DNA of 38,572 nt from Synergistaceae bacterium. Its GTDB lineage: Bacteria; Synergistota; Synergistia; Synergistales; Aminobacteriaceae. Under the pieces are notes generated by a model. That model did not search any database. It was not told the origin of the DNA and saw only the letters and a list, made by a program, of their open reading frames with translations. Made by a program: the position numbers and the translations under genes. This document shows positions 31-20,951 of the stretch, piece after piece (positions within the stretch are counted from its first letter, which is position 1; every line of letters starts with the position of its first letter). The stretch is from assembly GCA_009778055.1 (NCBI GenBank), contig WRKN01000001.1, positions 1-38,572 of the forward strand, given 5' to 3'.

Positions 31-3000
31 TCAACGCTTTTTCTGAAAAGCCTTATTAGCTTTATCGCGCCAATAAGCGGCCTTAACAAGGTCTTGATCC
101 ACTCCATCGCCGGTTTCGTACATAACGCTAACATTGTATTGCGCCTCGGCATTTCCCGCCTCGGCGGCCTTAAGGTACCAGGAAAAAGCCTTAGCGTGGT
201 CTTGTTCTACTCCTTCGCCTTTATCGTACATAGAACCGAGGCTGTTTTGTGCCTTGGAATGTCCTGCTTCGGCAGCCTTGCGATACCAGTAAAAAGCCTG
301 AGCGTAGTTATGTTCCACTCCTTCGCCGTCGTACATAGCGCCAAGATTGTATTGCGCCTCGGCGTCCTTCCTAATATCCCGCGGAGGGAAAGTCTTTTTC
401 TCTCGGTTGTTATCGTCCCAATACGGGAAGTCGTAGAATCTCGGCAGGCGGTAGTCCAAAAAACGCTCCAATTCCACGTAATTCGGATATTGGTGTTCCA
501 TCTTCCTGAATGTGGGGTCGTGCCTCCAGTAATTTCGATGAAGCAGCTCGTGGTAAATGACGTACTTGACCACCTCGCGCGGAACTTGGGAGGAATTGAG
601 CAACAGGTTGATCAGTATGTCGCTGGCAGTTTTCCCGTCCTCCAGTGCTACTTGAATATACTGCCCGTAACGGCTTTGATAAGGCCTGTCCGTCCAGCGT
701 ATGGAGCGGATACCGGGGTTGGTTCCGCCAAACTGTTCATCGATGACTTCTTGCATCAACTGTTCGACGTCGTAGGCCCCGTCGATCTCGAACGGAAGCC
801 GCGCCGTTTCCGGGAATGGAACGACAGCGCATCCCGGCCCTCGCCCATCGGGGTAATTCATGTAATGAAAAATACGTTCCCTGTACTTTGGCAAAAAACC
901 GAACAGACTTTCGATTATCGGATATTTAGCGAACAATTCATCCGGGTAAGTCATGATGTTCAAGTTTTCTTTACGTATTTTTTCCGCGACCACCTGTGGA
1001 TCGATCTCGTCCCGGTCGTTGAATTGGAACAACTCGGGCGGTTCTGTTCCCTGGCTCAGATTACTCAGAAAAACCTCCAGGTCTTTTTCGGACGGGCGCA
1101 CGCAGAATCCGCCGAAATATTTGTTCATCACCTCGTTCAAGCCGTTCGGCAAGCCGGAGGTGTTGAAATCCGCAATCAGCTCTTCGTAACCATGCACCTG
1201 ATCTTCAAACACCAACAAAACGTAGTCTTCGTCATCTTTAACCAAGTTATACCAGCCGTAGGGCATGGCAATGGAACTATTCAACTGCCCGGAGCCACTT
1301 TGAGCCTTGTCGTAAGCGGCTCGTATCACGGCCCAAGGGATGAATACAGTATCTCCCGCCACTCCTGCAACGCCCGGCAGCGGTTCCGGTTCGGCCTTGA
1401 CCAGCCACTCCGGGTTGAGCCAGTAGTTGTAGCGATCCCAACTGTCATGGAAGTCGACGATGGTCGCGGTCTCCGTTCCTCCGACGTTGCTGCCGCGCAT
1501 TGCTCGCCCGATCATCTGCATCAGCAGTACGTCGCTGCCCGTCGGGCGAGTGAGCATCACGGTCTGAATACCTGGAACGTCGCTGCCTTCCGTCATTATG
1601 TTGATATTGACCAGGACGTCCAGTTTATCGTTCCTGAATTGTTCGATGATCTTATTATTCTCCATTGGGTTTCCGCTGTAAACGCAGCCGCTCTTTACGC
1701 CTTTTTTTACAAGGTCTTCGTGCAACGTTTGGGCATGTACGGTATTCAGCGCGAAAATCAGCGTCTTTTTGTACCTGTCGCGGTTCTTCATGTAATGATC
1801 GATAATCAGGTTGTTGCGCTTTTTTGAGTCCGCGATTTTTTTAGCCAGCGACTCGGGAATATTATTCAACTGAGCCATCTGCCTGGCTTCGTCTTTGGAG
1901 ATCGACGACTCGAAGTTTTCCCCCGTTTCTATCCGCTCCACTTCCGGGTCTGCCAGAAATTTTCCCGTGATCAATTTACCCATCGAAATGTCGTAAATTG
2001 GAGGCCAGCCGAAAATCTTCTGCAAGTAGGCGGTTTGTCTGTTAGGGACGCTGTCTTCTTTTTTATCGATATATCCTCTGATCGGGGTGGCCGTCAGTCC
2101 AAGAAGTTTCGCGTTTTCATTCCGATCCTGAATGAAACGGATGGTGTCGAGGTAGGTCTTCGCTATAGCATGGTGCGCCTCGTCAACGACAATAATGAGC
2201 TTCTCCCTCAGAACCGACTCCAGAAAGTCCAGCCTGTTATAGACGGACTGAACGGACAGGAAAATCGCGTCATCGTCGCGCTCCACGCTTTTGATGCCCT
2301 CGTGTTCGCCGGATACGCATATCAATTGAAAACGTTCTTTTGTGGAGTTTGGGTGGAGTTTGATCAATGGGCTGTTGTCGTAAAAAGCTCCCGCGGCCTG
2401 ATTCAGCAGCATATGGCGATGGGCCAGCCACACCACCTGATAACCGATGGAGATCATGTAGCGCAGCAAAAAGTACGCGGTCGTCATGGTCTTTCCGCTG
2501 CCGGTAGGCATCACGAGCATTCCGGTTTTTTTGCCTTTTTGCAAAAACGCGTCTTGCAGATTGGCAATTGCGTCCTTTTGAAACGGAAATAGATTGAAGT
2601 CGTTCGCGCTGCTGTCGCGCAGGTTCACGACCGGAGGTCTTTGAGCGAACCGCGACGGGGCTTCTTCCCCTTCGCAGCCGACGCTCAATAGCACGGCGGC
2701 GACCTTTTTCGCCCTGTCCGCGGTCATGGGTTGCCTTTCAAAGTCATCGCGCAGAGAGGCGGCGTACATATTGATATCTATATCCTTCGGAGCGTCCATA
2801 ACCTCGCGGAGCTTATCCGGGTATTTCCCGAAAAAATACCGCCCAATTTCCTTTTGAAACCGCGTCACGAACGCCTCGTCCGGTTTTGGATAGTGCCGGT
2901 TCAATCCGGTCGCCAGAAAGGCGGGGTCGTCAGTGTCAACCGACGGCTTGCAGTCGGGCGGCGCTTTGCCGCTGTCCAGTATATCGAGAAGAAAATCCGA

Positions 3001-3045
3001 GTCAAAGTTCGCCCAGGTAAACGTAGAACCTTTCCCATTTGGCAT
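31..3045 (-). CDS. SF2 DEAH-type helicase fused to a DUF45/YgjP-like HExxH zincin motif and three C-terminal Sel1 (TPR-like) repeats, 1004 aa
   Basis: The ORF is uninterrupted. Helicase motifs are present: Walker A 'LVMPTGSGKT', motif II 'IIVVDEAHH', motif III 'LGLTATP', motif VI 'LLMQMIGRAMRG'. The zincin-like motif is 'VIYHELLHRNYWRHDPTFRKMEHQYPNY'. Three ~36-aa repeats of the type 'AEAQYNLGAMYDGEGVEHNYAQAFYWYRKAAEAGH' lie at the C-terminus and show as a ~108-nt DNA periodicity at ~100-420. An SD-like 'AAAGGGG' lies upstream of the ATG at 3045. Confidence 0.85.
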   Translation of the reverse strand: MPNGKGSTFTWANFDSDFLLDILDSGKAPPDCKPSVDTDDPAFLATGLNRHYPKPDEAFVTRFQKEIGRYFFGKYPDKLREVMDAPKDIDINMYAASLRDDFERQPMTADRAKKVAAVLLSVGCEGEEAPSRFAQRPPVVNLRDSSANDFNLFPFQKDAIANLQDAFLQKGKKTGMLVMPTGSGKTMTTAYFLLRYMISIGYQVVWLAHRHMLLNQAAGAFYDNSPLIKLHPNSTKERFQLICVSGEHEGIKSVERDDDAIFLSVQSVYNRLDFLESVLREKLIIVVDEAHHAIAKTYLDTIRFIQDRNENAKLLGLTATPIRGYIDKKEDSVPNRQTAYLQKIFGWPPIYDISMGKLITGKFLADPEVERIETGENFESSISKDEARQMAQLNNIPESLAKKIADSKKRNNLIIDHYMKNRDRYKKTLIFALNTVHAQTLHEDLVKKGVKSGCVYSGNPMENNKIIEQFRNDKLDVLVNINIMTEGSDVPGIQTVMLTRPTGSDVLLMQMIGRAMRGSNVGGTETATIVDFHDSWDRYNYWLNPEWLVKAEPEPLPGVAGVAGDTVFIPWAVIRAAYDKAQSGSGQLNSSIAMPYGWYNLVKDDEDYVLLVFEDQVHGYEELIADFNTSGLPNGLNEVMNKYFGGFCVRPSEKDLEVFLSNLSQGTEPPELFQFNDRDEIDPQVVAEKIRKENLNIMTYPDELFAKYPIIESLFGFLPKYRERIFHYMNYPDGRGPGCAVVPFPETARLPFEIDGAYDVEQLMQEVIDEQFGGTNPGIRSIRWTDRPYQSRYGQYIQVALEDGKTASDILINLLLNSSQVPREVVKYVIYHELLHRNYWRHDPTFRKMEHQYPNYVELERFLDYRLPRFYDFPYWDDNNREKKTFPPRDIRKDAEAQYNLGAMYDGEGVEHNYAQAFYWYRKAAEAGHSKAQNSLGSMYDKGEGVEQDHAKAFSWYLKAAEAGNAEAQYNVSVMYETGDGVDQDLVKAAYWRDKANKAFQKKR

Positions 3046-3080: not shown

Positions 3081-3125
3081 ATAATTTCTTTTATAAAGGG
3101 AAAAAGGGACAATTTGTACCCCAAT
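3081..3125 (+). repeat. Copy 1 of a ~45-nt imperfect direct repeat (core 22-mer AAGGGACAATTTGTACCCCAAT at 3104-3125), preceded by TATAAT at 3080-3085
   Basis: Hand alignment with 4470-4515. The core 22-mers differ at 2 positions, and an upstream 'ATAATTT' plus A/T-rich stretch is shared. It lies between the 179-aa gene stop (3147) and the helicase start (3045). Confidence 0.6.
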
Positions 3126-3738: not shown

Positions 3739-3921
3739 TTACCGCTTATTAACACTGTGTAATCCAGTATCTTCCTTTTCACATCTCGACGCACAGTTCG
3801 CAGACTTTTTCACAGAGTTCGTGGCTTTGAGAGTATTACACGCAAATTCAAATAAAGTGCCTTGGTTTTCAGGTGACAATAAGTTAAAGGTGTCAATTAT
3901 TGCTTGTACCTTGTCACACAA
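3739..3921 (-). CDS. Small hypothetical protein (60 aa, TTG start)
   Basis: A strong SD (GGAGGGGG) lies ~7-10 nt upstream of the TTG. It carries a 'LLSPENQGTLFEFACNTL' helix resembling the C-terminal 'LTLENQESLLLVAQELL' of the adjacent XRE protein. It is first in the minus-strand gene string 3921->31. Confidence 0.4.
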   Translation of the reverse strand: MCDKVQAIIDTFNLLSPENQGTLFEFACNTLKATNSVKKSANCASRCEKEDTGLHSVNKR

Positions 3922-3945: not shown

Positions 3946-3971
3946 GTTTTAGATATAATTATATCTAAAAC
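3946..3971. promoter_or_regulatory. Perfect 26-bp palindrome GTTTTAGATATAA|TTATATCTAAAAC in a divergent intergenic region (candidate operator / bidirectional promoter core)
   Basis: Both 13-nt arms were checked by hand as exact reverse complements. The palindrome contains 'GATATAAT' on both strands. It lies between the divergent starts at 3921 (-) and 4075 (+). Confidence 0.6.
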
Positions 3972-4469: not shown

Positions 4470-4515
4470 ATAATTTTTTTCTTATCAAAAAATAAGGGAC
4501 AGGTTGTACCCCAAT
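4470..4515 (+). repeat. Copy 2 of the ~45-nt imperfect direct repeat (core AAGGGACAGGTTGTACCCCAAT at 4494-4515)
   Basis: Same orientation as copy 1. It lies between the XRE gene stop and the Bro-N-like fragment. Confidence 0.6.
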
Positions 4516-4619: not shown

Positions 4620-4793
4620 ATGAGTGAATATAAAAACAAAATCAAATTATTTGAAGAAAAGCAGATTCGTGCCATTTGGGATGAAGAAGCTGAAAAATAG
4701 TGGTTCTCCGTTTTGGACATCATTGGTATTTTGACCGATCAACCGGACTACATAAAAGTTAGAAATTATTGGAAATGGCTAAAAAATAAACTG
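4620..4793 (+). pseudogene. Decayed N-terminal fragment of a Bro-N/antirepressor-like gene, with an in-frame TAG at 4698-4700
   Basis: 'MSEYKNKIKLFEEKQIRAIWDEEAEK*WFSVLDIIGILTDQPDYIKVRNYWKWLKNKL' matches, from memory, the N-terminus of a widespread Bro-N-type family ('...WDEE.EKWYFSVVDVVGVLT...NYWK.LK.RL'). The TAG sits where that family has W (TGG). Similarity stops after ~57 residues, although such proteins are usually far longer. GGAGG lies at 4605-4609. Confidence 0.5.
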
Positions 4794-4838
4794 ATGTCAG
4801 GTTTTGGATATCGGATTTTTACCTGGAGGTACAGCAAG

Positions 4839-5321
4839 GTGAAGTATGTCTATTTTGCCGTAGTTTTGGCGGCCGCCTTATCCATCGACAGATTGACTAA
4901 ATTTTTAGCCCTGGCGTATCTCCCGGGAAAAGTCGATTACGCCGGCGGTTTCCATATATTTGCCGTTTACCGCAACTATGGAATGACGTTCGGTATTTTG
5001 AAAGACAATCCTCAAGCCTGTTTGATTCTGGCGTTGTTGGTGATAGGGCTTCTTGTTCTTGCCCTCGTCAGGTACAAAGAAGCGCTTTTGACTCCTGGAG
5101 TTGCTTTTTTATTGGCCGGAGCTCTGGGAAACCTCTCTGACAGGTTGATATACGGTTACGTAGTCGACTGGATTCACATAGTAGTCTACATAAATTTGGC
5201 GGATATATGGCTTTGTTTAGGCGCGCTCCACTTGTTTTACCGTATAGATTCAGTTCGTCGGAGGGGGAAGGGGGCGCAGGCGCACTTTGAACGATACCGG
5301 CATTTCACCAAGCGTAACTGA
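4839..5321 (+). CDS. lspA: Lipoprotein signal peptidase (signal peptidase II)
   Basis: Motifs 'DRLTK', 'NYGMTFG', 'GALGNLSDR', 'VVDWI' and 'INLAD' are present. The GTG at 4839 is preceded by GGAGG (4825-4829). An alternative ATG at 4794 has no SD. Confidence 0.85.
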   Translation: MKYVYFAVVLAAALSIDRLTKFLALAYLPGKVDYAGGFHIFAVYRNYGMTFGILKDNPQACLILALLVIGLLVLALVRYKEALLTPGVAFLLAGALGNLSDRLIYGYVVDWIHIVVYINLADIWLCLGALHLFYRIDSVRRRGKGAQAHFERYRHFTKRN

Positions 5322-6432: not shown

Positions 6433-8210
6433 CGCACGACGGAGCAAGCACGCCCCGGCCTCAAAAAGTGATATCCCGCCTCACCGCTTACGCCGCGCCG
6501 TATTTGAAGACTTTCCTCGCGGCGTTTTTTTTCATGCTGGCGGCTTCGGCCCTTAATACTTTGCCTCCCCTGCTTTTTAAGAGCGTTGTGGACGACGTCC
6601 TGATCTCCAAGAACATGGCGATGCTCAATATGCTGTGCGTGGGCGTCGTGGTGATTTTCACATTGAAGGGAGCCGCCTCGTTCGGGCAGCAGTATTTCAT
6701 GAACTGGGTCGGCCAGCGCGTGGTGATGGACATCCGCATGGTTCTTTACGACCACATGCAGAGAATGTCCCTGCGCGTCGTCCACGCCTCGCGCGTGGGA
6801 GAGCTTATGAGCAGGATCACCGGCGACGTGGCTACGCTTCAGAACCTTGTGACCTCCACTCTGGCCAATTTGATAGTCAACGGGGTCACGTTCTTCGGGA
6901 TGCTGGGGTTCATCTTCTATATAAACTGGCGGCTGGCCCTGATCACCATAACCACGCTGCCGGCAGTTTTGTGGCTGCTGACCTTTGCCGCCGGTAGCCT
7001 TCGCAAAGCGGGCCACAGGGTGCAGGAAAGGCTGGCCAACCTAACGGCTATCGTTCAGGAGGCCTTCTCCGCGATAAGAATCGTCAGGGCGTTCGCCACG
7101 GAGGAATTTGAATCGGCGCGTTTCCGCGAGGGCAACGTCGAAAATTTCGACGCCCTGCTCCGGGCGGTGCGTATTCAGGCGTTCCTGTCGGGCGTGGTGG
7201 AGGTGTTTTTGATACTCGCCCTGGCGGTGGTGTTCTGGTTCGGCGGGCGCGACGTCCTGAAAGGCAGGCTCACCCCCGGCGAACTGGTGGCCTTCATAGG
7301 GTATATCGCTTTCATGGTGCAGCCCATCCGAGTTTTCATGAACGGGATGAATTCTTTGCAGACGGGCCTTGCGGCGTCCGAGCGCATATTTTCCGTCCTG
7401 GACTCCCCAACCGAGGCGGACGGCAAGAGCGCGGGCAGCAAAGAAAATCGCGCCCCAGGACGCATCAAAGGGCGGGTCACGTTCGAGCGCGTGCGTTTTT
7501 CCTACGCGCCGGACCGGGAGGTTCTGCGCGGCATCGACTTGGATACTCCAAGCGGCGAAAAAACAGCCATAGTGGGGCCGACGGGTTCCGGGAAATCCAC
7601 CCTCGTAGACCTCATTCCACGGTTCTACGACCCAACTTCCGGACGGATTCTGATTGACGGGCAAGATATATCAGGCCTCTCGCTCCCGGCGCTTCGCAGG
7701 CAGATAGGCATAGTTCCGCAGGAATCGGTTCTCATGAAAGGAACCGTCGCGTTTAACATAGCTTACGGGCTGCCGGAACTGCTCGATCGTTCGGCCTCGT
7801 CCATGAAAACCCTCCGCGCCGCCGCTCAAACTGCCGGTATAGACGAGTTCATAATGAGCCTGCCCGGCGCTTACGAGGCGGAGATCGGAGAGCGCGGAGT
7901 GAACCTGTCCGGCGGCCAGCGGCAGAGGATAGCCATAGCGCGCGCCGTGGTGCGCGACCCGCGCATCCTGATTCTGGACGAGGCCACGTCCTCGCTGGAC
8001 TTGGAGGTCGAGCGCCAGGTTCAGGAGGCTATGAACCGCGCAATGGCCGGGCGGACGTCTTTTGTGATAGCGCACAGGCTCTCCACGGTAATGAACGCCG
8101 ACCTTATTCTTGTGCTCTCGGAAGGCGAAATAGTCCAGCGCGGAACCCACGAAACCCTGCTGCGTGAAGACGGCCTGTATGCCCGCCTGTACGGCCTGCA
8201 ATTCAAATGA
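6429..8210 (+). CDS. msbA: ABC transporter, fused permease/ATPase, MsbA-like lipid A/lipid flippase
   Basis: A six-TM N-terminal half is followed by an NBD with Walker A 'GPTGSGKST', signature 'LSGGQRQR' and Walker B 'ILILDEATS'. The gene sits directly upstream of lpxK. Confidence 0.9.
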   Translation: MTHDGASTPRPQKVISRLTAYAAPYLKTFLAAFFFMLAASALNTLPPLLFKSVVDDVLISKNMAMLNMLCVGVVVIFTLKGAASFGQQYFMNWVGQRVVMDIRMVLYDHMQRMSLRVVHASRVGELMSRITGDVATLQNLVTSTLANLIVNGVTFFGMLGFIFYINWRLALITITTLPAVLWLLTFAAGSLRKAGHRVQERLANLTAIVQEAFSAIRIVRAFATEEFESARFREGNVENFDALLRAVRIQAFLSGVVEVFLILALAVVFWFGGRDVLKGRLTPGELVAFIGYIAFMVQPIRVFMNGMNSLQTGLAASERIFSVLDSPTEADGKSAGSKENRAPGRIKGRVTFERVRFSYAPDREVLRGIDLDTPSGEKTAIVGPTGSGKSTLVDLIPRFYDPTSGRILIDGQDISGLSLPALRRQIGIVPQESVLMKGTVAFNIAYGLPELLDRSASSMKTLRAAAQTAGIDEFIMSLPGAYEAEIGERGVNLSGGQRQRIAIARAVVRDPRILILDEATSSLDLEVERQVQEAMNRAMAGRTSFVIAHRLSTVMNADLILVLSEGEIVQRGTHETLLREDGLYARLYGLQFK

Positions 8211-10537
8211 ACAAATTTTTCCAACGTTTTCAGCGCGTCGTACACAGTTACATGAACTTCGTCAGGGGTACGAAATTTTCCCTCGTCTGGGCGTTCATAA
8301 TTCCGTCTTCGTGGATAATGCGCCTTTGGGTTGAAATATGGGATTTTTTCTACCGTCACGGGCTCCTGAAAATTCTGGAGCCGTCCATACCGGTCATAAG
8401 CGTTGGAAATCTCACCTTCGGAGGAACCAACAAGACCCCGTTCGTGGAAATGCTTTGCAGGCTCATAGAGGCAGGCGGCATACCGCCGGGCGTGGTCAGC
8501 CGCGGTTACGGAGGCGTTAACCCCGACGTCCGCGTTGTGGAGGGGGGGAAAATATCCGGGCTTGCGGCCGACCGGCGCTACGTAGGGGACGAGCCTATGC
8601 TGCTCTCGGCGCGTTTGCCGGGAGTCCCCGTGGCGGTGTCGCCCAACCGCGTGAAGGGGCTGGAAGAGCTGGAGCGCAGGGGCGTCAAGCTGGCGGTGGC
8701 GGACGACGCCTTTCAGCACCGGCGGTTCGCGCGCGACGCGGACATCGTCCTTATCGACGCGGCGTGTTCTTTCGGCAACGGCCTGCTAATTCCGGCCGGA
8801 ACCCTTCGGGAGCCTCCGTCCGCCCTGAGGCGCGCCCACATCGCCGTCATAACGAAAGTAGACCAGGCGGACGCGTCCGAGCTTTCTTCGCTTCGGAAAA
8901 AAATCTCGGAATTCGTCCCGGAAAACCGTATTTTTTACGCGCGCCTCAACGTAGCGGACTGGGCGGTTTGGGAAAACGGCAGCTTCCGCCTCAACGCCGA
9001 AAAGCCGGCGGGGCTCAGAGTGATGGCGTTTTCCGCCATAGGTAACCCCGACAGCTTCGTATGCTCCCTGGAAGCGGAGGGAACGATAATTGCCGGGACG
9101 CGGCATTTTCGCGACCATCACTCCTATTCGGAGTCCGACATGGAGTCGCTCCAGGCCGAAATGAAAGCGCGCGGCGCCGATTATCTGACCTGTACCGAAA
9201 AGGACATATATAACCTGCCGGCGGCGTGGAGGTCGGCGTCCGGCGCGTCGGGAAATTTTCCTCCCCTGCTGGTGCCGAGGGTCGTCACCGTCATGGACGA
9301 GCCGGAGCGTTTCAACGAAGCGCTTCTGGAATGTCTCCGCCCGCGCCTTGTGGTAGCGTCCAACGGTTACGGGGAAGACGCCATCGGCGTATTGATGGCC
9401 CAAAAACTGCGCCGCGCCTTCCCATCCGCCGAGGTGTCGGCTTTTCCCCTGGTAGGGCGCGGCGAGCCTTACAGGAGCCAGGGCTTCAAAGTGATTGCCA
9501 CGCCTTCCGTGACGCCCTCCGGCGGAGTGATTAAGTACAGGCTGCGCGACCTTTGGGGGGACATCCGCGCCGGGCTGTTCGGGCACATCCGCGACCAGCA
9601 GGGCGACTGGCGGGACATCGCCGGCAGGGTGCGCACTCCGGTTTGCGTGGGTGACGTGTATCTGCTGTTACACACGCTGTGGGGGCAGGGTATCTCTCCG
9701 CTGTTTGTGGCCACGGCCAAGACCGTGTACCTCAGCGGCCACTGGAGGCTCGAACGCTTCATAATCAGGCGCTGCTGCCGTAGAACATGGACGCGGGACA
9801 GCGATTCCGCCAACCAGCTCGCGGCGTCCGGCGCCGACGCGGTATACGCTGGAAACCCTATAATGGATCTTTTGGGCGACGTTCCGATCTCGGCGGCGCA
9901 AGGGCATGGGCCATTTTCGCGCCCTCTGGTCATGCTGCTGCCGGGTAGCAGGCTCCGGGCTTATGCCGACGTAAAAATGCTGCTTGACGCGGCCTTGATT
10001 ATGCAGACCCAAAAAGCCTGTGATTACGTAATGGCCCTTGCTCCTACAATTTCTCTCCAGCGCCTGATAGAAGCGTGCGAAGGATGGAACAGCGGTGAAA
10101 ATACCGGCGAAAACATAACTCTGAAAAAAGGTGAAGTGGAAATACGGCTGCATCAGGGCGACGTGCCGTCGGCGGCAAATGGCGTTCACATCCTGATCGG
10201 GCTTGGGGGGACGGCAAACCAGCTTTGCGCGGGCATGGGAATACCCGTGATATCTATAGACGAAAAGGGCAAACGCGTGCAGAAAAAACTGCTCGAAGAC
10301 TCCGAGCTGCTGGTGGAACCGACGCCTGAGGCGCTGGCCGCCTGCGCCCTGAAGGTGCTCACGACCCCTGAGCTTCACGCCATGATGAGCAGGGCGGGCA
10401 GAACCCGCATGGGCAGCCCCGGAGCGCTCGACAGCGTGGTCGGGTACGTAGGCAGGGAACTGGGGTGGAGCGTCCGGTGCGAGGTCTATGAGAAGCTGAA
10501 ACGCCCAAACGCTTTGCCGTCCAGCGGAAATTCATAA
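8207..10537 (+). CDS. lpxK: Tetraacyldisaccharide 4'-kinase (LpxK) fused to a ~400-aa C-terminal domain resembling 'lipid-A-disaccharide synthase-related' (LpxB-like) proteins
   Basis: The N-terminal ~375 aa are LpxK-like ('VISVGNLTFGGTNKTPFVEML...VVSRGYGG', 'DDAFQH'). From ~9341 the sequence 'RLVVASNGYGEDAIGVLMAQKL...' recalls the SNG(H/Y)GED N-terminus of LpxB-related proteins (from memory). The start overlaps the msbA stop (ATGA). Confidence 0.85.
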   Translation: MNKFFQRFQRVVHSYMNFVRGTKFSLVWAFIIPSSWIMRLWVEIWDFFYRHGLLKILEPSIPVISVGNLTFGGTNKTPFVEMLCRLIEAGGIPPGVVSRGYGGVNPDVRVVEGGKISGLAADRRYVGDEPMLLSARLPGVPVAVSPNRVKGLEELERRGVKLAVADDAFQHRRFARDADIVLIDAACSFGNGLLIPAGTLREPPSALRRAHIAVITKVDQADASELSSLRKKISEFVPENRIFYARLNVADWAVWENGSFRLNAEKPAGLRVMAFSAIGNPDSFVCSLEAEGTIIAGTRHFRDHHSYSESDMESLQAEMKARGADYLTCTEKDIYNLPAAWRSASGASGNFPPLLVPRVVTVMDEPERFNEALLECLRPRLVVASNGYGEDAIGVLMAQKLRRAFPSAEVSAFPLVGRGEPYRSQGFKVIATPSVTPSGGVIKYRLRDLWGDIRAGLFGHIRDQQGDWRDIAGRVRTPVCVGDVYLLLHTLWGQGISPLFVATAKTVYLSGHWRLERFIIRRCCRRTWTRDSDSANQLAASGADAVYAGNPIMDLLGDVPISAAQGHGPFSRPLVMLLPGSRLRAYADVKMLLDAALIMQTQKACDYVMALAPTISLQRLIEACEGWNSGENTGENITLKKGEVEIRLHQGDVPSAANGVHILIGLGGTANQLCAGMGIPVISIDEKGKRVQKKLLEDSELLVEPTPEALAACALKVLTTPELHAMMSRAGRTRMGSPGALDSVVGYVGRELGWSVRCEVYEKLKRPNALPSSGNS

Positions 10538-14476: not shown

Positions 14477-14589
14477 ATTGAGACCTCCGATATTTAAGAT
14501 ATGGGAGTATAGTGGGCTTATCTCCGCCCCTTTACCGAATTGATTATACACCTATACTTTAAGTGATTGTCACGACGGAGGGATCTTAC

Positions 14590-17500
14590 ATGTCAAACAT
14601 GTCTATTTCGGGCATAGTATCCGGCATTGACTGGGACGCTATGGTAGAAAAGATGATTGAAAACGCCAAAAGGCCGGCTTATGTCCAGTTGGTCAAGAAG
14701 GATAACCTGGAGCTGAAAAAAAGCTTATACGAGGAGTTCCTGATCTCCCTTCGCTCCCTCCAGAGCACCCTCTCGCCCCTCAGGCTGGTTTCCACCTTCA
14801 AGGCGAAAGAGGTCATCATCGACAGAATGGACAGCAACGGTTCCTACAGGGCCGTACTGAACGCAACGGCCAACGCCGACGCCCAGGTCGGCTCGCACGA
14901 CATCGAGGTTCTTCAGCTCGCCAGGGCACAGATAAACCGCTCGATATCGCTGGGTGGCTCGTTGAACTCGCTTGGAAGCCCACCCGTCAATCTCGGCGCG
15001 GACTCCTACTTCTACGTGTACGCCGCCGGGCAGAAGGTACGCATCGACGTTTCCCGCGACGACACGGCGGAAAGCCTGGCGGGGAAAATCAATGCCGGGA
15101 ATCAGAGCGTATTTCCCCCGATAAAAATGTCGGCGATGGTCGTGGACGACCGCCTGGTTCTGAAAAGCGACGATACCGGCACGGGGCGCGAGACTGTAAC
15201 GGCAACCGTTAACCGGAGCGTAAGCGGCATGGATACCGTGGCGTTTCTAGTAAACCCCGACGAACCCGGGAGCGGCACGTACACGCTCAACCTGACGGAC
15301 GACATCGGCGGCATCAACGGAGGGGAACTCAGAATCTCCAACGGTAGCACCGTATTAGAGCAAGGCGTACACTTCGACATCATAAACGGCAACGAAATAT
15401 ACTGGTATGACTTCAAACACAACTTCCCGCCCCCCGGGGGGAGTTATAAGGTTACGTATACCGCCACGGCGGATGACAGGTTTGACATAAATGTCGACTT
15501 CAGCAAAATAGTCAGGGAAACCGTCAAGGACGAGGACATCAGAGACAAGAATGTCCTGCCGTTCGACATTATTTCCCATCATGCGGGTAGCGCCTCAATC
15601 AACGACGGCACGACCGATTACTACGAAGGTATACACTTCAAGATTGAGGGCAGGGACATTGTGTGGCTTGAGGAGGGAGGAAAAACTCCCCCGACCAACA
15701 ACTATATAATCGCGTACCACTGCGCCGCCGGAGATAGATTCTCATTCGACGCCAAGAGAAACAACATGGATTCGGTAGACCCGATTCTCCTTCCCGGCGG
15801 CGGTACGAGGCCCATAATCATCGAACCCGTAATGGACGGTACTACGGTAGTTACCCAACCAGATACGGTCGTCATTCGGCATGGCGGTGTCACCTTCAGG
15901 CAGGGCGTGGATTTCGAGGTCAAAGCCGTGGGAAGCGAACAATTTATCGAATGGAAGGAATTGGGCTACGCCCCGATGCCCGGCGCGTCTTATTCCATCG
16001 AAGTGTACGACGAGAGAGGCATACGTCACACCTACAGCTCCAGCAGAGATACCGGGGACGCTGTGTCAACCCCTGCTGGATTTAATAGGGTCGGCGGTAG
16101 CGCTGGAACATTTACCGACGTAGACTACTTGGGGGCGATTAAAGGCCCCCTTAGTGACCCCGACGACCTTGAATACGACTATGAAATTAATGCGAGTACT
16201 GGGGCCGTGACTTGGCATACGCGTTCCCCTATGAAAGAGAATGAGAACATTCCGCGCTTCGGTGCCGATGTCGGGTACAGAGTCGAGTACACTTACAACA
16301 AAAGCACGTTCCGCCTGGACGACACGGACAGCAACGGAGTAAGCAACGGAATACTGGGGCGTTTGGGCTTTGACCGCTTTGATGACCCCGACCACTTCAC
16401 CGAGGCGCAGGATGCACAGTTGAGAATCGGCGGGGAGGACGGGCGGATTGTCACCAGCTTCTCCAACAATATAGGCGAGGGGTACGGCAACCCAATTGAA
16501 GGGCTGGAAGGGATAACCCTCGAACTGAGAGGGACGGGGCGGGTGATCGTTGACATCGAGCACGACGTGAACCCCGCGGTTGACGCGATAAACGCCTTCC
16601 TCAACTCCTACAACGACGTCATGAGGTGGATAAACACGCGCCTCACGGAAAAAGAAGTGGACGACTCAACGAAGTCCAGACTGGGACAGGACGACGTCCG
16701 CTGGAAATGGGGGCTTCTGAACGGCGACTCTCTGCTCCGCAGCGCGAAGGACAACTTCCGCCGCATTACATCGCAGCCGTACGTCCCAACTTTCTCGAAG
16801 CGCACCGGCACTAAATCCATTTACGGAACAATGTCGCAGAACGGTATAACGAGAGAAGACAGCTTCACCGTCACGGTGGGCATAAGGACTCTCAGAGTGC
16901 CGGTAAGGCCCACCGATACCATCCAGGACATAGCGACCTGGATAAACGCGCCGTTTTTGTCGCCGGGGGAACCGGATCCGCCGAGCGACTCCGTGTACGA
17001 CTACATAAAGGCCGGGTTAATGCCGCCGGGGTACGAGAACAACGGTTTTGTATACGCCTATGTGGAAGCGGGAGCCATAAACGGGGTAACCCCCGCGAAT
17101 ACGGCGGGATACAAATACCTGAACCCGCTGTACTTCGACCCGGAGGGGCGGCAATATCCCCAGCCCTTCGCCACCGCCCATATAGTGGACAACATGCTGG
17201 AAATAAGAGAAGCGGACAGCGAGGTAAAGCGTCCGGTGCGCCTGGGAGGCTCCAATGCCGCCCTGACCGCCCTGGGGCTTAACTACGAGTATACAACCCT
17301 CTCCCAGGTGGGAGTCAAGCTGCCGTCCGCCGGTCAGGGAGTCACGGAAGACGCCAAGATTGGTATATTGGAGTTCAACACGACCACGTTCATGGAAGCG
17401 ATGAAAAAGGACCCCGACGACGTGGCGCTGCTGTTCAACGCCTTCTCCACGGAGATGGACAATTACCTGAACGAATTGGTGAAATCTTCCCAGAAGGAAG

Positions 17501-17745
17501 TGTCGGGGGTCACGATGGTCGAGGGAGCGGTTCCCCGCGCGATGAGCGCCATCGACGACCAGATCAGGTCAATAGACAGATATCTGGACGAGTTTGAAAA
17601 ACGCCTCCAGAGAAGGCAAAAGACCCTTTTCGACCAGTTCGCCCAGGCGGAGGTCGCCATGTCGAAACTGATGGAGCAGGCCGCCTGGCTGGCCAGCGTG
17701 ACGGCCCAGCTTCAGGCGCAGCAGGCATCGCAGATGGGCAGATAG
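14590..17745 (+). CDS. fliD: Flagellar filament cap protein FliD (hook-associated protein 2), unusually long (1051 aa)
   Basis: The N-terminus 'ISGIVSGIDWDAMVEKMIENAKRPAYVQLVKKDNLELKKSLYEEF' and the C-terminus 'IDRYLDEFEKRLQRRQKTLFDQFAQAEVAMSKLMEQAAWL' are canonical FliD coiled-coil ends. The ATG at 14590 has GGAGGG 7 nt upstream. Confidence 0.85.
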   Translation: MSNMSISGIVSGIDWDAMVEKMIENAKRPAYVQLVKKDNLELKKSLYEEFLISLRSLQSTLSPLRLVSTFKAKEVIIDRMDSNGSYRAVLNATANADAQVGSHDIEVLQLARAQINRSISLGGSLNSLGSPPVNLGADSYFYVYAAGQKVRIDVSRDDTAESLAGKINAGNQSVFPPIKMSAMVVDDRLVLKSDDTGTGRETVTATVNRSVSGMDTVAFLVNPDEPGSGTYTLNLTDDIGGINGGELRISNGSTVLEQGVHFDIINGNEIYWYDFKHNFPPPGGSYKVTYTATADDRFDINVDFSKIVRETVKDEDIRDKNVLPFDIISHHAGSASINDGTTDYYEGIHFKIEGRDIVWLEEGGKTPPTNNYIIAYHCAAGDRFSFDAKRNNMDSVDPILLPGGGTRPIIIEPVMDGTTVVTQPDTVVIRHGGVTFRQGVDFEVKAVGSEQFIEWKELGYAPMPGASYSIEVYDERGIRHTYSSSRDTGDAVSTPAGFNRVGGSAGTFTDVDYLGAIKGPLSDPDDLEYDYEINASTGAVTWHTRSPMKENENIPRFGADVGYRVEYTYNKSTFRLDDTDSNGVSNGILGRLGFDRFDDPDHFTEAQDAQLRIGGEDGRIVTSFSNNIGEGYGNPIEGLEGITLELRGTGRVIVDIEHDVNPAVDAINAFLNSYNDVMRWINTRLTEKEVDDSTKSRLGQDDVRWKWGLLNGDSLLRSAKDNFRRITSQPYVPTFSKRTGTKSIYGTMSQNGITREDSFTVTVGIRTLRVPVRPTDTIQDIATWINAPFLSPGEPDPPSDSVYDYIKAGLMPPGYENNGFVYAYVEAGAINGVTPANTAGYKYLNPLYFDPEGRQYPQPFATAHIVDNMLEIREADSEVKRPVRLGGSNAALTALGLNYEYTTLSQVGVKLPSAGQGVTEDAKIGILEFNTTTFMEAMKKDPDDVALLFNAFSTEMDNYLNELVKSSQKEVSGVTMVEGAVPRAMSAIDDQIRSIDRYLDEFEKRLQRRQKTLFDQFAQAEVAMSKLMEQAAWLASVTAQLQAQQASQMGR

Positions 17746-17993: not shown

Positions 17994-19598
17994 CTACCTC
18001 AACGAATATATCTCCACCGGGGCGAAGGCGTCGGTGAAGGCCCCCACTTCCGGGGTAAAGGGGGCTGTCCAGTGGTACGACAGAAGACGCTCCATTTCCT
18101 CGTCGCGCGTGGTTAGATGTTCGCCGGGGGGTTTTTTCATGGCCACTATAATGAGGTTCTGGCGGGTTTGGGCGAAAGCGGGGCCGGGGCGCTGGGCCTG
18201 GAAGATCAGTATATGGGGGAAAACCTCCGACAGGGCCGCGTAAATGCCGTGAAAAACGCCCGACCGCCTTCCGGTGAGCGAGGATATAACATTTGAGACC
18301 AGCACTCCGTCCGGCGCAAGAATGTCGGCCATGCGCTGCGCGGCCTCCACCGTCGCCACGTGAAAGGGAATGGAGTACCACGAGCCGAAGACGTCGGTGA
18401 AAATGGCGTCGTACGACCCGCGCGTTTCGGGGTTGGCGGCGGCGCGATTGAGGAAAACCCTGGCGTCCTCATGGTGAATGTTGAGGGCGGGGCTGTCCTG
18501 GAGCGAAAAATACTTTCGCGCGGCGGCCGTTATCCCGGGGTCTATCTCCACCACGTCCATGGAGAAGGCGGGAAGCCCGGCCTCGTCCAGGCGCGTGACC
18601 AAAAGGTGACGGGGGACGCAGTACCCTCCTCCCCCGAGCATAAGGATATTTTTCGCGTCCGGATTATAGTGGAACGCCAGGTCATAAAATTTGGTGTATT
18701 CGCTTACAAGCTCGGAGGGGTTGTCCGTGTATATGATGGACTGCGCCCCCTCGCTGAAGGCGTCCGTCATGAGGAAACGCGCCCTGCGGCCGTTGGCGCG
18801 CGTATGCTCCGCTATCCAGATGTGGTTGTAAGGCGTGTCGATATGCTCCCCCGGCGGCATCATGGGCATACCCCACACAATCACGCCGCAGGAAAACGTC
18901 AAAAACGCCGCGCAGAACACCCCCGCTTTCTTCCAGACGGACCGGTAGAGCAAAAAGGCAATGAACGCCAAAACGGCGGCTACAAGGAACAGAATCGCCC
19001 CGGACGACAAAAACGATATCAGGACAAAACCCCCGAGAAAAGTCCCAAGGATACTGCCCGCGGACGACAGCGCCGAAAAGCGGCCTACCGTCGCGCCGGC
19101 CGAGCCGACGTCACGTATAGCCAAACGCACTATGAACGGGGACACCATTCCGAGAAGGACGCTGGGCGGCGCGAAAAGCAGGAACGAGCCTATGACTGAG
19201 GACAGATAAACGCTGTTTATGTTCCTTGAAAGCACCCTTAGAACCGGGTTGGACAAAAAAGCCATCAGGCCGGTGCAAAAGGAGGCGAGCAGGACAATCC
19301 TGGCCAGCACCTTCTGGTCCGGGCGCAGGTCGGCGGCCTTCCCGCCAAGCCAGTAACCCAAGCTGAGACTTGCCAGGACGACGCCTATAAGTGAAGTCCA
19401 CACAATTATAGATGTGCCTATGTATGGGGCTACCACGCGCGAACCAGCCATTTCCAGCACCATCACGGACGCGCCGCAGGTAAAGGAAGCTATTTCCAGA
19501 GTCCACGAGCGCCCCGTTTTTTTGCCGTTCGTATAATCAGGCTTCACATAGTCAGGCTTGCGGACTTTTTTCTTATCGGATTCCATTACAGAAACCAC
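17994..19598 (-). CDS. Fused polytopic membrane domain / spermidine-synthase-like (aminopropyl- or methyltransferase fold) protein
   Basis: The N-terminal ~230 aa carry about 7 TM helices. The C-terminal half has a 'ILMLGGGGYCVPRH ... VVEIDPGI ... DAIFTDVF' SAM/dcSAM-binding pattern typical of the SpeE-like fold. Confidence 0.85.
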   Translation of the reverse strand: MVSVMESDKKKVRKPDYVKPDYTNGKKTGRSWTLEIASFTCGASVMVLEMAGSRVVAPYIGTSIIVWTSLIGVVLASLSLGYWLGGKAADLRPDQKVLARIVLLASFCTGLMAFLSNPVLRVLSRNINSVYLSSVIGSFLLFAPPSVLLGMVSPFIVRLAIRDVGSAGATVGRFSALSSAGSILGTFLGGFVLISFLSSGAILFLVAAVLAFIAFLLYRSVWKKAGVFCAAFLTFSCGVIVWGMPMMPPGEHIDTPYNHIWIAEHTRANGRRARFLMTDAFSEGAQSIIYTDNPSELVSEYTKFYDLAFHYNPDAKNILMLGGGGYCVPRHLLVTRLDEAGLPAFSMDVVEIDPGITAAARKYFSLQDSPALNIHHEDARVFLNRAAANPETRGSYDAIFTDVFGSWYSIPFHVATVEAAQRMADILAPDGVLVSNVISSLTGRRSGVFHGIYAALSEVFPHILIFQAQRPGPAFAQTRQNLIIVAMKKPPGEHLTTRDEEMERLLSYHWTAPFTPEVGAFTDAFAPVEIYSLR

Positions 19599-19643: not shown

Positions 19644-20366
19644 TTATACGTCTAGCGTTACCCAATCCGCTTTAAGCGATTTTTCTTCCTCAAGAGACCC
19701 TATACTTTGTGCATAACGATCAAGAGATTCTTGGATTCTGAGTACAACTTCTGTACCCTCAAATTTTTCCAACAATTCATCTTGCTCCTTATTGAAAGAG
19801 TCACACAAGCAATCTATTCCTCTATTTTGTACGTGTTCTTTTATACTATTCCATGTTTCTACCCTAATCTCAGACGGATAATTTGCAACAAGAAAAGCAA
19901 CATCATAGGTATCCCGTGCCTTATCACGACCAATAAACGCCGCTGTTTTTAATTCTGCCATTCGTGCGATGGAATATACTCTCAGACCTTGAATAATCTC
20001 TGCGTCCTTTTCTTCAATTTCATGACGCATGGAACACTCAATTTTGAGAACATCGGGTTGTTTTGTGAAAGCCGATTGATAATGTACCATATATCTTTTG
20101 GTTGTTTCAGTATTTTTTTTGACGTTTATGCAGTCTATATCCAGCTTCACAGATTCAGCAGCTTTTAAGATGTGCTTCTGGAAATCAGTAACCGTACCGG
20201 GAGTGAGGTCAAAATCCATGTCTTCTGAAAAGCGGTCTAATCCACGTGTCAGCAACAGGGATGTCCCTCCTTTGAGGATTGCTGATTTTTCGTTTTTTGA
20301 TACTTCAAAAGCAATCGCTTTCATGAAATCAATACGTTCATTTTCCTGTTCATTAAATTCTTTCAT
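19644..20366 (-). CDS. AbiEii/AbiGii (DUF1814, MenT-like) nucleotidyltransferase toxin-family protein, 240 aa
   Basis: The NTase motif is 'LKGGTSLLLTRGLDRFSEDMDFDL'. The C-terminal motif is 'IGRDKARDTYDVAFL'. An SD AAGGAGGG lies upstream. The gene is AT-rich relative to its flanks. Confidence 0.85.
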   Translation of the reverse strand: MKEFNEQENERIDFMKAIAFEVSKNEKSAILKGGTSLLLTRGLDRFSEDMDFDLTPGTVTDFQKHILKAAESVKLDIDCINVKKNTETTKRYMVHYQSAFTKQPDVLKIECSMRHEIEEKDAEIIQGLRVYSIARMAELKTAAFIGRDKARDTYDVAFLVANYPSEIRVETWNSIKEHVQNRGIDCLCDSFNKEQDELLEKFEGTEVVLRIQESLDRYAQSIGSLEEEKSLKADWVTLDV

Positions 20367-20381
20367 GGCTTCAAACCCTCC

Positions 20382-20951
20382 TTAACTTTTGTAACCAGGA
20401 ACACGTTCTTTTTCTATCCATCGTATTAACATTTCTTGCTCCTCAATACTAAGATAAGGGAGCATTGTCGCAGCTTTTTCCAGCAGAAAACATTTTTCTT
20501 CCTCTGTGTCCAAGTAATCTTCAGAAGAACCATATAAGTAACTAGGATATTTCCCTTCTTTTATGCGCTCGTATAAGAGGTCAAGGATTGCCCGAAAATG
20601 GTTCGCCGCATGGGGTTCTCCCTTTTCTACATTAAATCCTTTTTTACGTAAAATCTCTCCGCATTTGTAAATACCGTAATTCTTGAAAATGTGATTAGTG
20701 TTAAGATACTCTCTTTCCCCAGCTACTTTTATAAATTTGACATGTTTTGCATCCCTGCAATAATAAATGCTTAAAAAATGCCAATCTCCACTTGTGCCTT
20801 CCGGCGCGGGAAGGTTTAATGCCGCCATCCCGGAGATGTATCTGTTCTCTGACAGGTCGTCAGGTATTTTTGCTTGGTATATTTTACGAGTATATTCTTT
20901 TGTTTCTTCACTCGCCTGATTTTCTTCGATGGCCGCTACAGTCATTTTCAT
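20382..20951 (-). CDS. Hypothetical 189-aa protein, upstream partner of the AbiEii-like gene (candidate non-canonical antitoxin)
   Basis: The ORF is clean and separated from the NTase gene by 15 nt. No wHTH or AbiEi-like pattern was recognised by eye. The composition matches that of the NTase gene. Confidence 0.75.
   Translation of the reverse strand: MKMTVAAIEENQASEETKEYTRKIYQAKIPDDLSENRYISGMAALNLPAPEGTSGDWHFLSIYYCRDAKHVKFIKVAGEREYLNTNHIFKNYGIYKCGEILRKKGFNVEKGEPHAANHFRAILDLLYERIKEGKYPSYLYGSSEDYLDTEEEKCFLLEKAATMLPYLSIEEQEMLIRWIEKERVPGYKS

Follow-up and report, generated by a model that had tools for sequence, protein, structure and literature searches.

What is the 1004-residue protein encoded at the left end of Synergistaceae bacterium contig WRKN01000001.1 (assembly GCA_009778055.1), and does it work alone? 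The whole stretch of DNA analyzed here, positions 1 to 38,572 of the forward strand of that contig (38,572 nucleotides), is referred to as the window, and the gene in question as gene B. An original prediction, made from the letters of the window, had read gene B as a fusion of a superfamily 2 (SF2) helicase, a zincin motif and three Sel1 repeats and had likened it to single-gene anti-phage proteins. Our analysis shows that gene B is the core of a conserved, undescribed accessory cassette, which consists of a small gene (A), the helicase-zincin gene (B) and usually a third gene (C). The window carries the A-B form of this cassette, in which a repeat scaffold is fused to B as the three Sel1 repeats. 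The idea of a single-gene system has therefore to be given up, since A is conserved upstream of B and C is usually present. As to function, the leading explanation, to which we give about even odds, is that the cassette is directed against phages or other mobile DNA, as a defense-type module that couples a DNA motor to a DNA-proximal protease.

The reading frame of gene B (Table 1) opens with an ATG that is preceded by an AAAGGGG Shine-Dalgarno sequence, and a database search recovered its exact protein sequence from the window contig only. Pfam placed ResIII on residues 150–323 (1e-25) and Helicase_C on residues 414–517 (1e-14), with a Walker A motif, GSGKT, at residue 182 (nt 2488–2502), a DEAH box at residue 288 (nt 2173–2184) and a motif VI, QMIGRAMRG, near residue 510. 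The complete DEAH helicase core that had been predicted is thus present, with its motifs where they had been placed, and, having motifs I, II and VI over two RecA-like domains, B is, as judged by its sequence, an SF2 helicase. The nearest named relatives of this motor, which match over the helicase core (residues 145–540) only, are RadD, type I HsdR, SauUSI-type type IV enzymes and PbeA; UvrB and Hef/XPB also figure among them. B shares with RadD, HsdR, the SauUSI-type enzymes and PbeA the ResIII plus Helicase_C core with its DEAH box but scores far below the family cut-offs. For RadD, NCBIfam model NF053632 gave 8.6e-34 and 116.8 bits against an equivalog cut-off of 720, through the helicase core only, and PDB entry 6jde matched at 5e-16; for HsdR, TIGR00348 gave 31 bits against a cut-off of 284. 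Because of these low scores, and because B has neither a nuclease domain nor HsdM/HsdS partners (its conserved partners being A and C), it is not a member of the RadD or HsdR families; further, it lacks the C-terminal region of RadD and carries a zincin in its C-terminal half instead. Since its nearest relatives RadD, HsdR and the SauUSI-type enzymes act on DNA, the substrate of B would be DNA and not RNA.

Pfam searches found no nuclease domain in B. A nuclease hidden in one of its two unassigned domains was also considered and was rejected because the invariant residues of both domains are hydrophobic or structural. The first of these domains, the N-terminal ~145 residues, matched no Pfam family and no PDB entry, and a second subfamily of helicase-zincin proteins does without it. 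The second is an α/β domain that occupies the stretch behind the helicase for which no assignment had been offered; it folds confidently in AlphaFold2 (pLDDT, the predicted local distance difference test, mostly >90), has no solved structural relative in Foldseek searches against the PDB and, in a HMMER search of the family, always travels with the zincin.

The zincin motif itself, HELLH, lies at residues 832–836 (nt 538–552) and is followed by H842, F846 and E850, all inside the string that the original prediction had singled out. H832, E833, H836, H842, F846 and E850 are invariant in alignments of 29 and of 69 homologues, and H842 is the putative third metal ligand. The region shares its HExxH-x5-H...F...E...P.Y residues with the YgjP-like/DUF45 family (PF01863; COG1451), as had been recognized, but the Pfam match on residues 812–864 is just above the gathering score (28.6 versus 26 bits) and takes in no more than the last ~55 profile positions (152–205 of 207), and about half of the homologues of B show no PF01863 match at the Pfam threshold. 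Because this match alone was marginal, the fold was tested in two independent ways. A profile of residues 546–880, built from 28 family members and searched against all PDB sequences, matched projannalysin (4jix, E=0.03) and selecase MJ1213 (4qhf, E=0.046), aligned over the HExxH helix and the preceding strands. An AlphaFold2 model of residues 546–880 made from 69 sequences (mean pLDDT 85; predicted template-modeling score, pTM, 0.80) was compared with the PDB by Foldseek, which returned jannalysin/selecase (4jix/4qhi) at probability 1.00, with a target-normalized TM of 0.58–0.64 over ~115 aligned columns, the DNA-protein-crosslink protease Wss1 at probability 0.38–0.63 and the M48 peptidase ZMPSTE24 at ~0.14. 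Because the profile matches and the structural comparison agree, residues ~758–872 are assigned a minimal zincin fold with an intact predicted site; the zincin call stands, with a fold nearest to the minigluzincins and a borderline YgjP-like match in Pfam.

Like the predicted zincin of B, the minigluzincins (projannalysin/jannalysin, 4JIX, and selecase MJ1213, 4QHF–4QHJ) comprise ~110 residues that form a helix, a three-strand sheet, the HExxH helix and further helices, with a further histidine close behind HExxH. They are free-standing archaeal mini-proteases with 15–22% identity to B, whereas the zincin of B is the C-terminal module of a ~850–1000-residue helicase and is always preceded by the family-specific domain of ~190 residues. 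The WLM and SprT families share the minigluzincin organization, and Wss1 is activated by DNA (PMC4559962). Wss1 (WLM) and SPRTN (SprT) thus belong to the same structural class as the zincin of B, but the structural match is weaker, and neither WLM (PF08325) nor SprT-like (PF10263) was found in B by Pfam; a faint WLM match was seen on one homologous fragment (P0271, E=0.012), and precomputed PF10263 assignments exist for 4 of 120 homologues. The activity of Wss1 and SPRTN is tied to DNA. In B, by contrast, the motor is covalently fused, and the distribution of the family is sparse and apparently linked to defense islands, not universal. The Pfam domain Peptidase_M78 (COG2856, ImmA/IrrE-type) was not found in B. 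By analogy with its structural relatives, the zincin is most likely a metal-dependent hydrolase, a protease of the minigluzincin/WLM/SprT structural class.

How widespread is this architecture? Full-length B retrieved 1,362 database clusters at E<1e-5. The best 119 homologues, of 809–893 residues, have the N-terminal domain, helicase, middle domain and zincin and cover 81–87% of the query, without the Sel1 tail; in their source databases homologues are labeled only as "DEAD/DEAH box helicase family protein" or "DUF45". Synergistaceae contribute the closest homologues, at 64–71% identity; the others, at 38–46%, belong to Clostridia and related groups. When the middle-plus-zincin module was searched for exhaustively with HMMER, it was recovered in 260 representatives (50% clustering) and lay in nearly all cases at the C-terminus of such helicases. 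Among 183 near-full-length members, Walker A is kept in 179, DExH in 180 and HExxH-x(4–7)-H in 176, and six of the seven exceptions to the last pattern keep HELLH. Because all three motifs are near-universal, the helicase and zincin catalytic centers both appear, from these alignments, to be under purifying selection. Literature searches turned up no description of the helicase-zincin architecture, although a recent large screen may name it under another label.

In genomes, the family is rare. Only 87 sites were confirmed among 185,579 species genomes, a species-representative set to which the genome of the window does not belong. Most carriers are Clostridia and Negativicutes of the rumen and gut, whereas Synergistaceae, Desulfovibrionaceae and Bacteroidales are represented by single bins; some sites lie on short contigs, for which the binning may be unreliable. 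Cultured carriers are Ruminococcus sp. YRD2003, Selenomonas sp. ND2010, Anaerovibrio lipolyticus LB2005 and Anaerobium acetethylicum GluBS11. A plasmid- or phage-borne origin was rejected because sequenced plasmids and phages yielded matches to the generic helicase core only and no full-length member.

The Sel1 tail proved to be the exceptional part of the protein. The three repeats had been correctly seen: they start at residues 897, 932 and 968, and PDB Sel1 proteins match them down to E=5e-66. However, besides B only one other database protein combines this zincin with Sel1 repeats, P0271, a fragment on a 1-kb contig that is 88% identical over the zincin region and was the only informative result of a zincin-plus-Sel1 query otherwise swamped by generic Sel1 proteins. 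Since P0271 carries the same fusion, the fusion is real but confined to a small clade. The three-part architecture is therefore as novel as had been supposed only with regard to its tail; helicase plus zincin make up a sizeable family, albeit one with no functional annotation, of which the triple fusion is a rare lineage-specific decoration.

Repeat scaffolds nevertheless recur throughout the system. Sixteen of 56 C proteins are long forms (~355–440 residues) with a C-terminal array of tetratricopeptide repeats (TPR); the distant B members P0274 and P0287 have C-terminal TPR arrays of their own, and other members carry zinc ribbons. In the closest relative of the window, a gene for a 359-residue TPR protein (TPR359) lies immediately upstream of A, and its product is homologous (47% identity, E=3e-54) to that of a TPR gene which follows P0274 in an unrelated locus. 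The Sel1 tail is most simply read as the fused equivalent of an interchangeable TPR-type scaffold of the system. Separately, we note that the TPR gene after P0274 repeats part of the C-terminal sequence of P0274 itself. We also note that TIR domains (PF13676, PF01582) are fused to several Sel1-repeat proteins that closely resemble the tail of B (P0395, P0405, P0408, P0481, P0487 and P0498), so that such Sel1 arrays serve elsewhere with immune-type effector domains.

The partners of B were identified by clustering all open reading frames (ORFs) within 5 kb of the helicase in 78 loci from one-genome-per-species collections. Only two neighbor families recur, A and C. A (median 162 residues) is present in 63 loci, always on the same strand as B and upstream of it in 62; C (~215 residues), found in 55, shares the strand of B and lies right after it or between it and A. 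The junctions between C and B are mostly tight or overlapping (−27 to ~+40 nt), with a few of ~100 nt and larger gaps rare. Across the 48 loci with intact flanks, the gene order is A-C-B in 19, A-B-C in 14 (one with a second C), A-B in 8, B-C in 4, B alone in 2 and B-A in 1, so that A accompanies B in 42 and C abuts B in 37. Neither A nor C has a significant Pfam match (marginal only, E≥0.05) or a PADLOC match. Thus, the gene string proposed for the window holds in part: the gene upstream of B is a conserved partner and C emerges as a second one, but the 60-residue ORF, and likewise the XRE-family helix-turn-helix (HTH) gene that faces the string, are not conserved beside homologues in the clustered loci.

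In the window, A had been read as a 179-residue HTH protein. Its true start is, on the sequence, almost certainly M20, because a GGAAAGAGG ribosome-binding site lies upstream of this codon and the resulting N-terminus fits the MV.E.E of homologues, which makes the protein ~160 residues long; it is 71% identical to the product of the gene upstream of a Synergistaceae homologue of B. The HTH signal in A is marginal (PDB 3op9, E=0.077; Pfam HTH_31, E=0.086), and an alignment by hhalign with the genuine XRE protein of the window gave a probability of 0.7%. These data bear on a regulatory switch of the ImmA/ImmR or IrrE/DdrO type, in which the zincin would cleave a repressor-like A upon a DNA signal sensed by the helicase and thereby change how the cassette or a mobile element is transcribed. 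Pairs of a metalloprotease and an HTH repressor are an established logic, as in ImmA/ImmR and IrrE/DdrO, and the conserved A-first adjacency, the weak XRE-like signal and the terminator-like hairpin that parts A from B in the window would all suit such a switch. However, the hhalign comparison does not bear out an HTH in A, the zincin is not of the M78/ImmA type, integrase, conjugation or phage structural genes do not recur beside the cassette in the clustered neighbors or the Pfam scan, and a motor protein of ~850 residues would be a costly sensor for a simple switch. We therefore consider it improbable.

C is known only from the context of this cassette. A search found 150 homologues, all of ~200–250 residues and without annotation, in which acidic, polar and aromatic residues are conserved (D22, E39, N42, Y111, R150 and W176), and its structure is modeled with a pLDDT of 92 and a pTM of 0.90. 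PUA-like modified-base readers (YTH, the N-domain of T. gammatolerans McrB, SRA and MJECL36; EVE is also among these folds) account for about 20 of the 50 best among its weak PDB matches, a resemblance that is a lead only, because all have probabilities <0.1. No C was found in any of the six frames of the window by a hidden Markov model (HMM) search, and the Synergistaceae relative also lacks it. In some loci without C, a family of ~349 residues follows B instead (L008:2796-3845, L024:3873-4928, L040:10620-11660, L019:3078-3542 and L085:3041-3124), which makes the third component of the cassette modular. Its members, for which no family assignment was obtained, have a conserved Cys-rich motif (AFK.NYCDGG...GF.G.CS) and an N-terminal domain of ~70 residues, faintly like the tudor domain of PcrA/UvrD, that also occurs at the N-terminus of some long C forms.

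In a second alternative, the zincin would be no protease: it would be a metal-dependent hydrolase with nucleotides or nucleic acid as its substrate, or would have a purely structural or autoinhibitory role, and B would work as a translocase of the restriction type with its effector in another place, such as C. This would fit the poorly defined activity of DUF45/YgjP proteins, the likeness of the helicase core to those of PbeA and of restriction enzymes of types I and IV, the conserved residues of C and the lean of its weak structural matches toward PUA-like base readers. Yet at least 96% of family members keep a full HExxH with its glutamate and the third histidine, the closest structures to the zincin are all peptidases and the structural matches of C are all non-significant. 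Further, the window and 8 of the 48 intact loci, those of the A-B form, lack C, which therefore cannot be a universal effector. A zincin that is not a protease is, in our view, very improbable.

Is the cassette a housekeeping or an accessory system? To the right of the cassette, the window carries lspA, an ankyrin-repeat gene, an msbA-like gene and lpxK, whereas the 69%-identical relative (locus L001) sits between aspS and rplS-trmD-rimM-rpsP-ffh. As had been proposed, gene B is AT-richer than core genes, though modestly so (GC content at third codon positions 0.64 versus 0.71–0.75), and the adjoining region at 3.6–4.9 kb has 36–46% GC. Because it is sparse and patchy, has no conserved synteny, is AT-richer and has no full-length member on sequenced plasmids or phages, the family is accessory and not housekeeping. 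The original prediction had stated that a widespread housekeeping helicase with core-genome synteny would speak against it, and what we found is a sparse, non-syntenic family with defense genes among its neighbors.

The same evidence bears on genome maintenance, in which B would be a helicase-coupled protease that clears crosslinked proteins or roadblocks from the cell's own DNA, like FANCJ with SPRTN, or Wss1. This alternative had been raised in the original prediction and is possible: the best named relative of the motor is the repair helicase RadD, the zincin falls in the minigluzincin/WLM/SprT neighborhood (Wss1 at probability 0.63, PF10263 on few homologues), Wss1 is DNA-activated (PMC4559962) and some loci are embedded among housekeeping genes. 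It is disfavored, however, by the distribution and context of the family. With 87 non-syntenic sites in the 185,579 genomes, frequent defense genes as neighbors, and dedicated partners that vary alongside shuffled C-terminal modules (TPR, Sel1, zinc ribbons), the family resembles conflict systems and not core repair; the RadD score of 117 bits is likewise far under the cut-off of 720. We regard this role as quite unlikely.

Defense genes near the cassette were surveyed in the two nearest non-module genes on each side of B in 35 intact loci (134 proteins). With PADLOC at E<1e-10, these neighbors included mad3 (3), mad2 (2), type I restriction endonucleases (2, best 6e-290), type IV restriction endonucleases (2) and PDC-S01 (2), and further HmaB, HmaC, JetD, BrxA, BrxP, PDC-S14, PDC-S18 and a type II methyltransferase; Pfam added McrBC (3), DUF4238 (2), Dynamin_N (2) and SUFU (3). 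By our estimate, which is no statistic, roughly one-sixth of the immediate neighbors are recognizable defense proteins, which is suggestive of a share well above that expected for random genes. Individual loci agree: Wadjet JetABCD lies directly upstream in L003, and a DNA methylase, a HATPase protein and a recombinase lie nearby in L002. In L086 (L086:1504-3381 and neighbors), P0274 stands beside a 625-residue TIR_2-TPR protein, a protein with Band_7 and a double zinc ribbon, and a CI/LexA-like (HTH_3 plus Peptidase_S24) and Cro-like pair, surroundings that form a defense or prophage-type island.

Several points weigh against a role in conflict. The assignment is one of guilt by association, and the neighbor counts on which it draws are aggregate, not per locus, and stand without a matched background; what the defense-island survey foreseen in the original prediction yielded is many specific defense families. 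Other loci have housekeeping settings, as in L001 (aspS / rplS-trmD-ffh) and L005, beside rnc-smc-ftsY. The cassette contains no nuclease or other classical effector, and PADLOC-DB v2.0.0 matched B through its helicase core only (PbeA, mREase_IV and REase_I), with no model beyond it, although newer DefenseFinder models may include it. Neither a PDB sequence profile nor Foldseek searches against the PDB and viral structures gave a significant match for the fold of C. As to the zincin, the Pfam match is marginal and partial, DUF45/YgjP proteins are of poorly defined activity and not proven proteases, and the annotation of E. coli YgjP is that of a weak UTP pyrophosphatase. Finally, exact-pattern scans of metagenome contigs for an extension to the left of position 1 found nothing, and the gene downstream of B lies outside the window.

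Were the cassette a defense module, the SF2 motor would bind foreign DNA, or DNA in an abnormal state, and translocate on it using ATP. The zincin that it carries would cleave proteins on or near that DNA, or would, like Wss1 and SPRTN, become active once DNA is engaged. Recognition of a protein or nucleic-acid ligand as the target would fall to the Sel1/TPR scaffold and, in cassettes that have it, to C. A, separated from B by the terminator-like hairpin, may be a small operon regulator. A more specific form of this scheme, which might be called proteolytic restriction, is rather unlikely: here, a translocase-borne, Wss1/SPRTN-like zincin would destroy proteins on invading DNA, for example terminal, replication, packaging or DNA-protecting proteins, without cutting nucleic acid, and interchangeable TPR/Sel1 scaffolds, with C, would select the target.

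Elements of this arrangement have precedents. Eukaryotic DNA-dependent proteases cooperate with an unfolding ATPase or helicase (Cdc48, FANCJ), and a repeat scaffold joined to a protease or NTPase, as in the cassette, is found in TPR-CHAT/Csx29 of type III-E CRISPR and in the TPR sensor arms of Avs/NLR-like proteins, with repeat modules exchanged from lineage to lineage. In those systems, however, the protease is caspase-like and the NTPase is of the STAND type or a CRISPR effector, whereas B has a zincin and an SF2 helicase, and no homology to them was detected.

Around gene B, the window holds several local features. The hairpin between A and B has a second copy at 4494–4512 (−), as a direct repeat; the 19-nt motif GGGGTACAA(AT/CC)TGTCCCTT, with a shared ATT before it, is part of a conserved stretch of ~22 nt, and zero such pairs are expected by chance. 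The two copies bracket A, the 60-residue ORF, the palindrome and the XRE gene (1.39 kb), and the motif was not found in the 84 family loci searched; the pair may be one terminator that was reused, or a scar left when the cassette was inserted. The 60-residue ORF may be expressed, because a strong ribosome-binding site precedes its TTG. It has no Pfam, PADLOC or NCBIfam match and clusters with no neighbor of other loci, and its membership in the module is doubtful because it is not conserved beside homologues. Its motif LSPENQ..L.EFA resembles the C-terminal part of the adjacent XRE protein (LTLENQESLLLVA). The palindrome noted at the divergent promoter is indeed perfect over 26 bp and is, from its sequence, a plausible candidate operator. 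Of the mobile-element debris that had been described, one short pseudogene remnant with an in-frame stop was found, which matches no Pfam or NCBIfam family, and no mobile-element family is identifiable; the remnant runs directly into lspA, whose Peptidase_A8 domain begins at residue 52 of the ORF at 4713–5321.

Table 1. Features of gene B and its surroundings in the window.
Feature	Coordinates (nt)	Strand	Basis or remarks
Gene B, helicase-zincin-Sel1 protein	31–3045	−	1004-aa ORF, ATG start; module core
Three Sel1 repeats, B residues 897–~1000	46–357	−	Pfam Sel1 (PF08238), 99.5 bits versus cut-off 30.7
Predicted minimal zincin, B residues ~758–872 (~115 aa)	430–774	−	Pfam, PDB profile, Foldseek
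α/β middle domain, B residues ~570–757 (~190 aa)	775–1338	−	AlphaFold2; invariant P595, W598, Q616, F644, R678
SF2 helicase/translocase core, B residues 150–~541	1423–2598	−	Pfam ResIII and Helicase_C
N-terminal domain, B residues 1–~145	2611–3045	−	Alignments; invariant F9, W11, F14, F18, P55
Terminator-like hairpin between A and B	3104–3122	−	GGGGTACAAATTGTCCC, then T-tract
Gene A, ~160 aa	3147–3629	−	"179-aa" ORF of the window, which extends to 3686
60-aa ORF	3739–3921	−	TTG start; strong GGAGGGGG ribosome-binding site
Perfect 26-bp palindrome, GTTTTAGATATAA/TTATATCTAAAAC	3946–3971		Divergent intergenic region, between the 60-aa ORF and the XRE gene
Divergent XRE-family HTH gene, 121 aa	4075–4440	+	Pfam HTH_19 1e-10, HTH_3 1e-8
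Pseudogene remnant, MSEYKNKIKLFEEKQIRAIWDEEAEK and WFSVLDIIGILTDQPDYIKVRNYWKWLKNKL separated by an in-frame stop	~4625–4800	+	Local GC 36%

Elsewhere in the window, an AbiEii nucleotidyltransferase toxin (19644–20366, −; Pfam 2.8e-20) lies downstream of a gene for a 189-residue protein without a family match (20382–20951, −). Because of the AbiEii match and because both genes lie in a patch of 39% GC, they are probably an AbiE-type toxin-antitoxin or abortive-infection pair and a second accessory island. Three further ORFs are unusual in their make-up. A FliD of 1060 residues (14563–17745, +) is unusually long, with FliD_N at 20–123, FliD_C at 909–1036 and ~780 unassigned residues between them. 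In a 776-residue ORF (8207–10537, +), LpxK covers residues 29–375 only, and nothing in Pfam matches the C-terminal ~400 residues at E<1e-5; this points to a fusion, or to an ORF finder that ran two genes together. A protein of the fused MFS/spermidine-synthase family (17994–19598, −) matches NCBIfam NF037959 at 1.6e-79 and no Pfam family at E<1e-5.

In conclusion, the helicase-zincin family adds three domains that have no solved structural relative, namely the N-terminal and middle domains of B and the protein C. With its TPR/Sel1 scaffold placed on B, on C or in a separate gene, it also offers a natural experiment in modular target recognition. Because cultured carriers exist, the conflict hypothesis is directly testable. 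If the cassette does serve in defense, its mechanism, a helicase covalently coupled to a zincin without a nuclease, NADase or membrane effector, would be one that is absent among characterized systems, and bacteria would have a counterpart of the way in which eukaryotes pair a DNA-dependent protease with a helicase or unfoldase.

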